DNA from: Octopus vulgaris
Lineage: Eukaryota
Direction: 5' to 3'
Length of the DNA: 64,000 bases
NCBI GenBank assembly: GCA_951406725.2
Contig: OX597832.1
Location: 6,510,001 to 6,574,000 of the forward strand
Part shown: positions 4,776-46,852 of the stretch, in pieces
Layout of the letters: each line of letters opens with the position of its first letter
Position numbering within the stretch: position 1 is the stretch's first letter
Notes under the pieces: model-generated
Databases searched by the model: none
Seen by the model: the letters and a program-made list of their open reading frames with translations, nothing else
Told to the model about the DNA's origin: nothing
Position numbers and translations under genes: made by a program

Positions 4776-6784
4776 ATGTGTATATATGTAACCCATAAGA
4801 CCATAATTTAACCAAGAAGGTGTCTCTGCAGATGTCTAGTGCAACAATATTACTTTCCTCATAATCCTCAAGAGTACACAATAACTGGTGAGATCTGGAG
4901 TCAAGGAAGATATACTGGTGTGAAATAAGTCGCAGCTTTTCCATTATCTTTTAGGTGTTTGAAGTATGGAAAATTGGATGCTAGCTGTGTGAAGGAGATT
5001 GCTCTTCTTAGAGATGAAAAATACCCAGACATGTTTCTTAAGACTGGAATAAAACTCTGTAGATGACAAGGATTAGAGTTTGACAAGGACATGAGCTAGT
5101 TGAGTGTGAAATATTAACTACACCTTATGAGTTGTTTCATTATTAGATCACTAAAGTTATTGTTAGTCTTCTAAAGCAGCTACTTGGTACTTCGTATTTA
5201 AAATTCAAATGATCTTTGTTTCTAAATAAGATTAGTGTAAAAGGTGCAGAATGTATCCCTGTTGAAAGCTTATTTTGTGAGAAGGACAAATTTTAAAACA
5301 ATAGTTAGACATTTTGCCAAACCTGTAGTGTGCGTGTTGGTGTTGGGGGGTGAATGTACTTGCATGTGTGTACGTATTTGTTCACAAAGCTTCTTTTATG
5401 TATCTGCCAACTAATGAAAGAAAAAAATAAGGTCAATTTCTCCAATCTTTATCTTACATTTCATTAAGCTTTAATCTTTTTTGTGAGTAAATATCTGTTA
5501 CTTAGTGTGAGTTGATGAAAGATAATTGGGCTCATGTACTGATACCACCTTTTGAATCACTTTCTCTATTGTTTAGTTCTATTGTAATGTACTACTGTCG
5601 GTACTGTATTTGCTTGACTAACATTTATTTCAAGGTTTCTCTTTAGTTCATCTAACTTCTTTGTTACCAATTGTCATCAGAACCAAAAAGTTAGATGAAC
5701 TGAAGAGAAACTTTGGAATAAATTATTATATTACTCTCACAGTTGAGTAAGTCAGTTTGAGTCATCATGTTCTTCCTCTTTCTGATTTTTAATGCATGAG
5801 GTATATAGTGACTACTTATTGATTTCTTACATTGGAATCAGGCCACAGCTTTATAAGGTGGAAAATAGTTAATTCAGTTAACCTCAGTACATGCCTGCTA
5901 CCTAGTTTATCAACTATGTAAAGAACAATGGGGAAAAAAATCAACTTTCAGAACAAAGAAATTGAACTGAATACTGAAATATATTATTTGTTGTTGATTA
6001 GCCCTGTGTTTTCTATAATTGAGCAGGACTGTGATCAAAGGTATTACAGCCATGGCCATCCTCTCAGTTTTACATTTAAGACCACATTATATTGTGTGTC
6101 CTTTCTTATAAACATTGTGGAGTATAATTTGTAAGAATTTGGCATCTATTTCTAGCATGTCATGCAACCTCATGGAGACTCCTTTATCACCTCAGAAATG
6201 CATTTAATCTAATGCACCGGTGTTTCTACCCTTCCTTTATCTTATACTTAACATATTATCATTCCCTTATCAATAAGCTGGCTCCCCTTCCCCCAAACAA
6301 AAATGTAAACCTTCTAAAAGCTAAGGCCACAATCTAGTGTTGAATTTTCAATGTAGCCATTATCACTTGTCTCACGGTAAAAGGTATGAATGTTGAGCAC
6401 ACACCTATACTAATTTTTCTTTTTACCTATAAACCTTAGATCATGCCAAGAATTTGTTATCATTCTTGACACCCATGCTCAACTTGGTATTTTTAATGTT
6501 ATATTTCTGCAACATTATCATTCTGTTATTAACCAAAACCTTGTACTTTCCACAGTTTTTTGGTTTAACTTACATGCTCTAGTATTTGTTATGTTACCAT
6601 TCTAACCTTTTGTCTGCAACTCTATTGTAAAGATCATTTTTGTTTTCTAATACAGAAGTCTGAGCACCCAATAATACAATAGTTGCTTCTGTGAAGTGCC
6701 TATTTAGTCACTTTCTTTTTTTTCTGGTTTCAAATCCTACTGAGATAAAATTGGCAATTTCGTACCATCAGGATTAGTAAAATT

Positions 6785-7998: not shown

Positions 7999-8034
<36 letters not shown>

Positions 8035-8074
8035 CAAATCTATCTCCTGCTTACTTAAGAAATTATTATAAAAT

Positions 8075-8676
8075 CTTTGCTTGCGAAGACCTGTTGAGGC
8101 AAGTGAAATCAATCAAAATCAAATTCGATGACTGGTGTCCGTGCTAGCAGGGTGTAAAGAGCACCATAAGAGTGTGATCATTGACAGAGTGGCTAACCAG
8201 CATCCGTGCCAGTGGCACTTAAAGGGCACCATTCAAGCATGATCCTTACCAGCGTCGCCTTACTGGCACTTGTGCCCGTGCAAGTAGGGTGCCAAGAGCA
8301 CCATCCGAGCGTGATCGTTGCCAGAGCAGCCAGCTGGCTTCCATGCCAGTGGCACATAAAAGGGCACCATTCGAGCGTGATCATTACCAACATCGCCTTA
8401 CTGGCACCTGTGCTGGTGGCATGTGTAAAAGGATTCGAGTGAGGTCGTTGCCAGTACCGCCTGACTGGCCCCCGTGCCAGTGGCATGTAAAAAGCACCCA
8501 CTACACTCTCGGAGTGGTTGGCATTAGGAAGGGCATCCAGCTGTAGAAAATCTGCCAAATCAAGATTGGAGCCTGGTGCAGCCATCTGGTTCGCCAGCCC
8601 TCAGTCAAAATCGTCCAACCCATGCTAGCAGGGAAAGCGGATGTTAAACGACGACAACGATTATGATGATGATGAT
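8075..8676 (+). mobile_element. RTE LINE 3' UTR with 5-6 tandem hairpin units
   Basis: GAAGACCTGTTGAGGCAAGTGAAATC, repeated GTGCCAGTGGCAC...GCACCAT.CGAGCGTGATC units, GGAAGGGCATCCAGC and an (ATG)n tail. Confidence 0.8.
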
Positions 8677-10865: not shown

Positions 10866-11322
10866 TATATATATATTGATTATTTGTATCAATTATTGTC
10901 TTTCTTGTTATACTGCTTGTTCATTCCACTTGAATGAAAGTGTACATAGATTGGACTAACTTGGAGATTGAACTCACTCCCATCAGGAAAACTACAACAC
11001 TTAACATGCAATCATTGCTTATGATCACCATCTCATTCTACTGACTCGAAATCCCAAGAACAATACATTACGGAACATAACAGTCATCTGATGAAGCACC
11101 AGAGAATGATAAAATGGTTGTGACATTGTGGTTAACAACAAGGAGGGGTTCAAATGTGTCAGTGTACAATAAATTGAAATGCCCTAGTGTATAATAAAAT
11201 ACTTTCAGCACGTACCAAAATATGGTATGTGTGTATATAGTTACACACACACATACACACACACAAATACTTACATACAAATATGTATATACATATTTAT
11301 ACACATATGCTTACATATATAT

Positions 11323-11354
<32 letters not shown>

Positions 11355-11360
<6 letters not shown>

Positions 11361-11485
11361 TTTATAGAAGGAGCTTCTACAGGACTAGAACTGTTTCATT
11401 CAAATGAAATCATCAGGAGTTTCCTGATGATTTCATTTGAATGAAACAGTTCTAGTCCTGTAGAAGCTCCTTCTATAAAATAAAT
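11355..11485. repeat. Perfect palindrome: 64-bp arms (11355-11418 and 11422-11485), 3-nt loop
   Basis: Checked base by base: 64 of 64 pairs are complementary, loop GTT. Confidence 0.97.
11415..11471 (+). ncRNA. Type I hammerhead ribozyme motif (Penelope-type)
   Basis: Stem I AGGAGUUUC/GAAGCUCCU (9 bp, one GU), core CUGAUGA at 11424-11430, stem II UUC-AUUU-GAA with a U.U at its base, GAAA at 11443-11446, stem III ACAG/CUGU, cleavage triplet GUA at 11460-11462. Confidence 0.7.
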
Positions 11486-11553
11486 TAATTTACTCTGCTA
11501 TGTATTGAGTACCTTATTTACTGTGGTTAACCTCGACTCAACCCGGGACCTAC

Positions 11554-11590
<37 letters not shown>

Positions 11591-11724
11591 TGTATTTACA
11601 CAGAAATATATCACATACATATATATACATACATATACACACACACACATAACGTATGAACACATACACGCACACATTCGCACAGAAGGAAATTCATAAA
11701 TCTATCCTCATTTAAGGTCAGACA

Positions 11725-12232
11725 AAATTTTCTACATTCCTGTTGTCAACCCGAATCCAGTGCTCCGCAATCGATATGCCGTGACACATTAGTGTGCCAT
11801 GAGATGATGCAAGGTGTGCCTCATTGTAATTTGAATATAATTTTTTTCTTCCCTATACTTTTAATTATATTTTTAGTTCAGGTGTGCTCTCGAATTGCAA
11901 ATTGAAAAAAGTTGTGAAGCACTGCCCTAACCTGTTCCCAGGCAATGTAATATTTCCCATAGCCAGATATGCTTTACCACAAAAGATTTGGAAATGATGA
12001 ACATTGTAGGACGTTAATACTCATTTACAACCATCACAAGATGTCAAGACTAGGTCACACACACCATCTACATGATGGGCTTCTTTCAGTTTCCAACTTT
12101 CAAATCCATACATAAGGATTTGGTTGGCTTGGAGCTGTAGCAGAAGACACTTGACCAAGGTACCATTTGGTGGTACTAACCCGAGATAACATTGTTGAGA
12201 AGCAAGTTCTTTTTACCACTCGACCATGCTTA
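11725..12232 (-). mobile_element. SINE family B (shared head, RTE-like tail) interrupted by a hAT MITE
   Basis: Homologous to the reverse complement of 13960-14375; split at 11758-11924. Confidence 0.65.
11758..11924. mobile_element. hAT-like MITE
   Basis: TIRs CAGTGCTCCGCAA / TTGTGAAGCACTG; 8-bp flanks CCCGAATC and CCCTAACC match at 6 of 8 positions (putative TSD). Confidence 0.65.
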
Positions 12233-32395: not shown

Positions 32396-34190
<1,795 letters not shown>

Positions 34191-36532: not shown

Positions 36533-37400
36533 TCATCATCATCATCATCATCATCATTTAACGTCCGCTTTCCATGCTAGCATGGGTTGGACGGTTCAAC
36601 TGGGGTCTGGGGAGCCCGAAAGCTGCACCAGTCCAGTCAGATCTGGCAGTGTTTCTACAGCTGGATGCCCTTCCTAACGCCAACTACTCCGAGAGTGTAG
36701 TGGGTGATTTTATGTGCCACCGACACAGGTGCCAGACGAGGCTGGCAAACGGCCACGCTCGGATGGTGTTTTTTATGTGCCACCGACACAGGTGCCAGAC
36801 GAGGCTGGCAGACGGCCACGCTCGGATGGTGTTTTTATGTGCCACCGACACAGGTGCCAGATGAGGCTGGCAAACGGCCACGATCGGATGGTGTTTGTTA
36901 CGTGCCCACAGCACGGAGGCCAGTCGATGCGGTACTGGCTACGGCCACGTTCGGATGGTTTTCTTGTGTGCCACGTGCCACCGGCACTGGTACCACAAAG
37001 ATACAAATTCCATTGATGTTCATCTATTTTGATTTGTTTTGATTTTCACTTGCCTCAACAGGTCTTCACAAGTGTCACAAGAAGGAAGGTATGCACAGGT
37101 GGACTGACTACGTCCCAGGTAGGGGCCACAGGTTATGGCCTGACTAGTCTTGCCGGGTCTTCAGATGGTGTTTTTATGTGCCACCGACACAGGTGCCAGA
37201 TGAGGCTGGCGAACGGCCACGATCGGATGGTGTTTGTTACGTGCCCACAGCACGAAGGCCAGTCGGTGCGGTACTGGCTACGGCCACGTTCGGATGGTTT
37301 TCTTGTGTGCCACCGGCACTGGTACCACAAAGATACAATTCCATTAATGTTCATCTATTTTGATTTGTTTTGATTTGATTTGATTTGATTTGTTTTGATT
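36533..37400 (-). mobile_element. Young RTE LINE 3' UTR with a 62-66 bp tandem array plus a duplicated internal segment
   Basis: Units start at about 36711, 36774, 36836, 36899 and 36965. 37161-37375 duplicates about 36823-37045. CpG-rich. Confidence 0.85.
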
Positions 37401-45927: not shown

Positions 45928-46852
45928 TCATCATCATCATCGTCATTTAACATCCGCTTTCCATGCTGGCATGGGTTGGACAGTTTGACTTAGGACTGGT
46001 GAGCCAGAAGGCTGCACCAGGATCAATCTGATCTGGCAAAGTTTCTACAGCTGGGTGCCTTTCCTAACATCAATCACTCCAAAAGTGTAGTGGGTACTTT
46101 TAAGTTCCACTGGCACGAGGGCCAGTCAGGCAGTTCTGGCAGTGACCACGCTCAAAAGGTGTTTTTTATGTGCTACCTGCATGTGAGCCAGTCTGGCAGC
46201 ACTGGCAATGACCATGCTCGAATGTTGTTTTTAACATGCTACCAGCACATGTGCCAGTAAGGTGATGCTGGCAACGATCACACTTGAATGGTGCTTTTTA
46301 CATGCCACCGGCATGGGAGCCAATCCGTAGCCCTGGCAACGCTCATGCTCAGATGTGCTTTTAATGTTCCACTGGCACAAGTGCCAATCAGGCAGTACTG
46401 TCATTGGCCACATCAGCAATTTTGATTTGATTTCACTTGCCTCAATAGGTCTTCGCAAGCAAAGTTTATTGTCCAATGAATGAGGGGTACTCATAAGTGG
46501 GCTGGTTACACCCACTGGCATAGGCCACGAGCTATGTCTCATTTGGTTGGTCAGCTCTTCTCAAGCACAGCATATCTCCAAAGGTCTTGGTTACTAGTCA
46601 TTGCCTCGGTAAGGCCCAATGTTCAAAGGTCATGCTTTCTCCACCTCATCCCAAGTCTCCATGGGTCTACCTCTTCCACTGGTTCCCTCAACTACTAGTT
46701 GTGACACTTTCTCACACAGCTGTCCTCATTCGTTCACAACACATGAGCATACCAGTGCAGTCATCTCTCTTGCACACCACATTGGATGCTTCTTAAATCC
46801 AACTTTTCTTTGAGGGCACTTACACTCTGTCGAGTATTCACACTGACATTAC
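45928..46852 (-). mobile_element. 5'-truncated RTE LINE: ORF C-terminus plus 3' UTR array and (ATG)n tail
   Basis: Minus strand 46852-46545: ALKEKLDLRSIQCGVQER*LHWYAHVL..EDSCVRKC..VVEGTSGRGRPMETWDEV...GLTEAMTSNQDLWRYAVLEK, the RTE RLRW.GHV.R...GRPR..W..DR..WR motifs. Confidence 0.88.

Follow-up and report, generated by a model that had tools for sequence, protein, structure and literature searches.

The closest described relatives of the insert analyzed here are the Penelope-like elements (PLEs) of the Hydra clade, a group of C-terminal EN+ PLEs (Craig et al. 2021; PMC8557442), for which that paper leaves open how PLEs make their inverted ends and what their hammerheads do. The head-to-head architecture itself has already been published (legend of fig. 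2 in PMC8557442; Arkhipova et al. 2013, PMC3846280; Cervera and de la Pena 2014, PMC4209133). In vitro, the PLE protein PAc cuts and extends both target strands; synthesis begins at two internal positions matching the tail and does not depend on hammerhead cleavage (Frangieh et al. 2024; PMC11167929). In L1, an extra G marks capped full-length insertions (PMC11702581).

The window, a stretch of 64,000 nucleotides of the Octopus vulgaris genome, contains a perfect 64-bp inverted repeat (arms 11355–11418 and 11422–11485, loop GTT), the only one above 30 bp in these 64 kb when A/T-only arms are excluded. The initial annotation had described it as a flawless hairpin between (TA)n tracts, and the sequence indeed has (TA)n on both sides. 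We identify the insert, almost certainly, as the stump of a PLE, and specifically as a promoterless, head-to-head piece of the 5' end of a Hydra-clade element (table 1); the stump is devoid of the TATA box, which stands upstream in intact copies. Over 11418–11557 (140 bases), the window copy is 97.9% identical to the long copy L112, and long direct copies, too, have their 3' end at the 11476–11485 site. The base G11417 is compatible either with the inverted arm or with a cap-derived base, and the same junction class is found in seven arms among those scored in a 90-locus sample described below. Long non-repetitive ORFs were not seen anywhere in the 64-kb window, and the copy is most likely inert. 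The window also holds other repeats: high-copy ones, judged by contig depth, just downstream of the insert (11800–12100), a strongly GC-skewed array of TATA/TGTA microsatellite, 1.75 kb long (32401–34167), and two GC-richer dispersed repeats, one with a 63-bp tandem unit in 3.2 copies (36708–36906), the unit of which also occurs in L114, and one with a 66-bp unit in 2.2 copies (46121–46262).

Table 1. Parts of the insert and of its target, in window coordinates.
Feature	Positions	Strand	Basis
Left (TA)n target microsatellite	11327–11354	.	Sequence
Inverted arm without tail, element ~+5 to ~+68; mirror hammerhead with broken stem I	11355–11417	-	Inverted-repeat analysis
Head-to-head junction; A11418 is the putative +1; C>T variant at 11420	11417–11421	.	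Junction comparisons
Type I hammerhead motif, predicted cut after A11462	11418–11468	+	Descriptor, folding, File S2 layout
Predicted competing hairpin across the cut site	11461–11475	+	Folding prediction
Short-end site, AT-rich, including AATAAA 11479–11484; putative second RT start	11476–11485	+	End positions across copies
One-sided tail of ~67–70 bp; its end is the putative first RT start	11486–11557	+	End positions across copies
Right (TA)n target microsatellite; 2–4 nt of common AT blur its boundary	11558–11576	.	Sequence

The perfection of the palindrome had been read as the mark of a very recent insertion, a view that our data do not support. The two arms are identical in 34 of the 54 comparable short-palindrome loci, where arm-to-arm divergence amounts to 25 of 2,882 bases, and because similar short palindromes occur in 54 of 90 consecutive copies, perfection does not date the window copy. 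The family is young, and there is no sign that this copy is newer than the others.

Exact matches in the genome numbered 5,759 for the core, 3,807 for the tail and 5,995 for the start of stem I, with none for the reversed-pattern controls; an initial search had yielded 40 near-identical copies, and 29 of these, counting the window copy, carry a partial arm in inverted orientation. The tail is joined to the ORF in just 110 matches, many of which lie within three tandem arrays. The proposal of a hammerhead-bearing PLE terminal repeat with an inverted partial copy holds, as RT–GIY-YIG copies exist: the genome-wide look for arm copies adjoining RT/GIY-YIG ORFs found full-length copies that bear the terminal unit at both ends. 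In L112, which spans ~5.6 kb, the unit stands at 5914–5786 and 434–306 and flanks an RT–GIY-YIG ORF with one frameshift. The pseudo-LTRs (pLTRs) overlap the ORF start, with an inverted 5' copy and a one-sided tail, the hammerhead is sense to the ORF, and the tail runs on into the ORF in L112 and L117. Walking upstream, we crossed ~2.9 kb of low-complexity sequence, then a GIY-YIG domain and then an RT, that is, a single ORF with RT and C-terminal GIY-YIG, whose motifs were recognized in L112, L117, and L120. The low-complexity 3' region also aligned to window positions 32650–34167, which we set aside as a simple-repeat match. The degenerate TA/TG sequence between ORF and 3' pLTR (~2.4–2.9 kb; L061:1330–3700, L112:636–3600) aligns between distant loci at ~77–86%, and part of what is called simple repeat in this genome may have been spread by the PLE.

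Protein motifs, together with the (TA)n target, would place the element among the EN+ PLEs of the Hydra clade. The DKT motif reads SDKTK in L112 and L117; the linker CxCX5C is CNCPDKTTC, and in several copies CxxC (CDLC) and CxH (CMH) surround the E and N residues. RWR stands where the Hydra clade has RWK and aligns to the RWK of a second family of the same genome, to whose intact 717-aa ORF the ORF of the element is 39–40% identical. A Pfam search of the ORF gave no RT or GIY-YIG match for the element family, and a profile search gave a weak match to a retron RT (E 0.005). The linker, being CxCX5C, excludes the Neptune clade (CX2-5CxxC linker, CCHH); CCHH is absent, a single Cys standing between the GIY-like and the YIG-like word. 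The C-terminal position of the endonuclease excludes Naiad/Chlamys, in which it is N-terminal, and a non-LTR retrozyme, made of head-to-tail tandem hammerhead units, does not match the single head-to-head pair of the window copy. TA tracts adjoin the element ends, with few exceptions, in 30 inspected loci and in the 90-locus sample. The AATAAA of the short-end site is at most a putative polyadenylation signal; the insertion ends carry no poly(A).

Several other sequences of this kind were encountered. The second Hydra-type family (L283–L312; e.g., L287:763–2913 and G000:C21:8155821–8162384) has intact 717-aa ORFs, some of them in tandem at ~2.59-kb spacing, and its hammerhead escaped the descriptor used. 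Further families of type I hammerheads, whose stems II are longer and one of which occurs in head-to-head copies, are present at L277:2115 and 8013–8602, L275:8398, and L279:2479. Unrelated PLE-like RT/GIY-YIG remnants lie beside copies of the element family (L119:1157–3498, L113:8619–9794, L122:1116–2141), and the one in L119 does give a Pfam GIY-YIG match. The three tandem arrays, made of pLTR and ORF start of the element family, have units of 271 bp (L280, G000:C8:91474800–91484000; 31 hammerhead matches), 333 bp (L281, G000:C5:37481000–37490500; 21 matches), and 277 bp (L282, G000:C2:64628000–64632800; 14 matches); each contains a head-to-head switch, and they are retrozyme-like derivatives.

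We compared ends and junctions in a sample consisting of the first 90 of 100 listed exact tail matches, consecutive on one contig. The tailed 3' end fell at 11552–11556 in 88 of the 90 loci. After filtering of ~12 low-complexity false matches, an adjacent inverted arm was present in 57, its distal end lying at 11479–11493 in all but one of these (56/57), and short palindromes resembling that of the window were found at 54 loci. Among 12 long loci checked, a pattern of one long and one short end is common, albeit not strict: L115 has two long ends, and three loci were missed by the motif search. Tailed arms started at +1 in 26 of the 90 loci (including six called at 11413, which are palindromic overlaps), between +2 and +32 in 35, up to 90 nt upstream in five, further upstream in 19, and at 11478–11500 in five, with none at 11450–11477; starts thus peak at A11418 and thin out downstream to 11449. 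Outer ends are fixed at +68 and ~+137, junctions vary and pile up at +1, and targets are (TA)n. Independent short-read assemblies show the same classes, runs X16, X17, and X20 having loose ends at 11485 that lead into (TA)n, and the contigs of run X16 another 24 loose ends at the A11418 base. None of the 90 tailed arms begins at the hammerhead cut site, which indicates that the RNAs that were copied were uncut, although the ribozyme may still be alive. Tandem copies in L005 looked as if they began at the cut site, but a purine run common to both fuses them with another repeat, and they thus provide no evidence of cleavage; this locus (L005:1700–2030) is a three-unit chimera of the post-cut part of the element and another (TA)n-associated repeat.

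The inversion point, at A11418, is likely the transcription start, a coincidence that the initial annotation had missed. The distance from the TATA box to the A11418 equivalent is 29 nt in all 92 intact copies matched, while the 29-nt spacers themselves are only 66–83% identical between subfamilies. The base at -1 is A, T, or C in these intact copies (G in 0/92); G occupies this position in 971 of 5,995 arms, and in 17 of 23 non-overlap junctions of the sample, one templated variant having been dropped. Both arms extend to +1 with a spacer of 1–8 nt in 278 matches (~139 junctions), and the base beyond +1 in the first 100 of these 278 listed rows is C in 80, T in 10, A in six, and G in four (hand count). 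Such an extra C at arm ends would be expected from copying of a cap. As the arms served as template for most of the spacers, the signature is strong but indirect, and the choice of filler could account for part of the C excess. The position of +1 is read from genomic fossils, and the start is a putative one. In L216, L225, L227, and L228, short head-to-tail units arise where the template switches from +1 to another copy, in its tail or ORF start; +1 is thus the landing point of head-to-tail jumps as well, and some of these (L225, L227) show an extra G. The AGCT palindrome alone was discarded as a cause of the pile-up at +1, as a second AGCT, at 11465–11468, has no tailed-arm starts and a single inverted-arm call (L197), which resembles a deletion. 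No report of a cap signature was found in the PLE literature, in searches that reached few subscription papers.

The plus strand carries the words of a type I hammerhead (CUGAUGA at 11424–11430, GAAA at 11443–11446, GUA at 11460–11462), a 4-bp stem III (ACAG/CUGU, 11446–11449 with 11458–11461, around an 8-nt loop) and the AATAAA at 11479–11484, all where they had first been noticed, and stem II consists of 3 bp on a U.U. The core CUGANGA, GAAA, and NUH and the three stems are thus all there, and a strict descriptor gave one match in the window and none in any of 100 simulated windows of equal dinucleotide frequencies. An Rfam Hammerhead match, which had been named as a check, was not obtained: no hammerhead family was returned at gathering score for the window, nor at E≤10 for 11200–11700. 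Rfam miRNA matches, below their own cut-offs, were set aside as generic hairpins. Of the 9-bp stem I initially described, 9 bp are present in the window if G.U pairing is included, but only 6 bp are native (11418–11423 with 11463–11468); these begin at +1, and the outer AGG is supplied by the inverted arm. The broken stem I of the minus-strand mirror copy is confirmed by the sequence. The U.U below stem II, taken to be a possible defect of this copy, is invariant in the 85 arms scored, and by our count it occurs in 14 of the 25 Hydra-clade families in File S2 of PMC8557442, where the Hydra-clade rows have a motif layout like the one found here.

Folding, with energies computed without magnesium or protein, predicts that the ribozyme is mostly folded off. 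In a natural copy, the predicted probability of stem I pairing is 0.75–0.99 at 52 nt, ~0.06 at 68 nt, and 0 at 136 nt, as the hairpin at 11461–11475, which covers the cut site, would displace stem I once the RNA exceeds ~55 nt; an alternative register of stem II is also predicted. The C>T change at 11420 lowers predicted stem I pairing to ~0.18 in the window copy, and the predicted fold of 11412–11480, a construct that had been proposed for in vitro cleavage, has neither stem I nor stem III. In the 85 arms, whose core words are fixed by the way arms were selected, subfamily variation is limited to N7 and loop II, and no compensatory stem changes were seen among them, the family being too young. 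As the tail (93–98%) is about as conserved as the hammerhead (96–98%), and compensatory change is missing, conservation gives no sign of selection on catalysis. Stem III is self-complementary, with a predicted energy of -12.8 kcal/mol for the duplex and -1.4 kcal/mol for the hairpin. One might imagine that the hammerhead serves during retrotransposition not as a cutter but as a cap-proximal switch and dimerization signal, which would be turned off by the downstream hairpin while stem III pairs two transcripts, an RT dimer then copying the paired RNAs onto the target at its two cut ends. We regard this as a long shot; if true, it would explain mirror insertions and why PLEs keep weak ribozymes.

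As to how the stump arose, we think it probable that an uncut, capped RNA was copied into DNA twice and that the two copies were put together at the insertion site. Transcription would begin at the A11418 equivalent, 29 nt below the TATA box, so that the hammerhead would form the first 51 nt of the RNA. The RT–GIY-YIG protein would nick both strands of a (TA)n tract, and each 3'-OH would prime a cDNA at one of the two internal sites, probably aided by pairing of 2–4 nt of AT. Both cDNAs would run off the 5' end of the RNA, often copying the cap as an extra C, and their ends would be joined via the self-complementary AGCT, microhomology of 1–2 nt, or short templated filler. The ribozyme, mostly folded off, would leave the copied RNAs uncut.

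The main competing explanation is fold-back, or self-priming, in which a micro-palindrome lets a single cDNA, or else an antisense RNA with its end at +1, bend back and serve as its own template before being attached to the target at the AT-rich +68 site. For head-to-head PLE palindromes, an antisense template that primes itself has been proposed (PMC3846280), and the junction of the window, compatible with the joining of two cDNAs, equally permits a 2-bp stem with a 3-nt loop. Arm composition is in line with it as well: the two arms agree in subfamily variants at 26 of 27 loci, against 31% expected, and at N7 in 44 of 45 pairs (hand count). Such agreement suggests a single template, a single source locus, or conversion, and speaks against a version of our scheme with two RNAs; a template read twice would account for it, as would fold-back or gene conversion. 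What makes fold-back unlikely is the geometry of the arms. At 15 of the 57 inverted loci, the tail-less arm extends further 5' than the tailed arm, so that each arm holds unique sequence and neither can copy the other without later deletion, and in L117 the same inequality reaches the kilobase scale (tail-less arm 4.8 kb, tailed arm <1 kb). Some of the 15 unequal loci could result from deletion after synthesis. A tail-less first strand, moreover, cannot yield a tailed arm, the loopless AGCT centers seen in 1,372 matches require two molecules, and an extra C on both arms implies two run-offs. Unequal arms, loopless centers, and varied junctions fit the in vitro behavior of PAc (PMC11167929) better than the antisense self-priming of PMC3846280, and they favor the copying of two cDNAs from capped RNA.

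The thousands of similar short copies, and the tandem arrays (271, 277, and 333 bp), most units of which carry a hammerhead, might suggest that a ready-made palindromic mini-element propagates as a whole from a master copy, in the manner of a MITE or retrozyme. This is very improbable and largely refuted: the 57 loci display 41 junction geometries, which argue for independent formation, and represent several subfamilies; arm lengths grade up to full-length elements; and the outer ends are unequal, unlike terminal inverted repeats. We give similarly little credit to a locus-specific regulatory device, whether as an active ribozyme that the long hairpin gates or as dsRNA exploited by the host. 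Every core base of the hammerhead is intact, and a read-through transcript, if one is made, would plausibly form a very stable hairpin (predicted -106 kcal/mol), a substrate for ADAR or Dicer as a dsRNA. However, the layout is common to ~60% of sampled copies (54/90), the stump has no TATA box, the C>T change weakens predicted stem I pairing, and the window shows no long non-repetitive ORF. An assembly artefact is scarcely credible, for although long palindromes in microsatellites are hard to assemble and no independent contig bridges the locus, the ends are asymmetric, the junctions varied, and identical end classes and junction variants recur, at the family level, in independent short-read assemblies.

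The locus itself is an ordinary one. The family, apparently a new one among PLEs of a described type, matters somewhat more, and its junctions preserve a useful trace of the mechanism. We estimate that ~2,300 natural junctions (54/90 of 3,807) are available, giving predictions at the base level: transcripts that are capped and begin at +1, reverse transcription from +68 and ~+137, two cDNAs joined end to end, and templates left uncut. These predictions favor double priming on sense RNA over the published antisense self-priming, and existing in vitro assays are suited to them, so that mirror-insertion junctions offer a testable clue to how such insertions form. In addition, thousands of perfect 60-bp hairpins in the genome are possible sources of dsRNA.

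The octopus element shares with the Hydra-clade PLEs of PMC8557442 the order RT then GIY-YIG, the DKT motif, CxCX5C, CxxC/CxH around E and N, the (TA)n target, and the inverted 5' copy with a one-sided tail, as well as the type I hammerhead, the U.U under stem II, and, with several families, the ACAG/CUGU stem III. It differs from the features given there in its length (~5.6 kb, where the clade is generally <3 kb, a typical rather than defining trait), which is due to the ~2.9 kb of low-complexity 3' sequence, in RWR for RWK, in a tail of ~67–70 bp for 30–40, and in a loop III of 8 nt for 0–3. Its hammerhead also differs from the Hydra-1_Obim row of that paper and thus belongs to another family. 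The EN+ PLEs of Arkhipova et al. (PMC3846280) have likewise head-to-head inverted pLTRs, a palindromic junction, an optional tail, and a TATA box with initiator in the pLTR; the self-priming proposed there uses an antisense template, whereas the octopus junctions map to a likely capped sense start, and target-site duplication is unreadable inside the octopus (TA)n. As described for the Poseidon element PAc (PMC11167929), two internal RT starts bound the tail, both strands are cut and extended, and uncut RNA is used, with no reads at the hammerhead cut site; PAc belongs to a different clade and its starts lack target homology, whereas the octopus ends share 2–4 nt of AT with (TA)n, and inverted products and caps lie outside the account of PAc in the sections of that report drawn on here. 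The PLE hammerheads of Cervera and de la Pena (PMC4209133) are also of type I, located in pLTRs, and mostly scattered in truncated copies, with some close pairs on opposite strands, a palindromic helix III, and low predicted activity as monomers; the octopus motif departs from them in a stem II of just 3 bp on U.U instead of G10.1–C11.1, and in a stem III that can close as a 4-bp monomer hairpin. Finally, twin priming of L1 (PMC11702581) is similar in that a second target end primes a second cDNA and that complete 5' ends carry an extra G, but L1 inversions consist of adjacent, largely non-overlapping halves, whereas the octopus halves duplicate one 5' segment and start at fixed sites.
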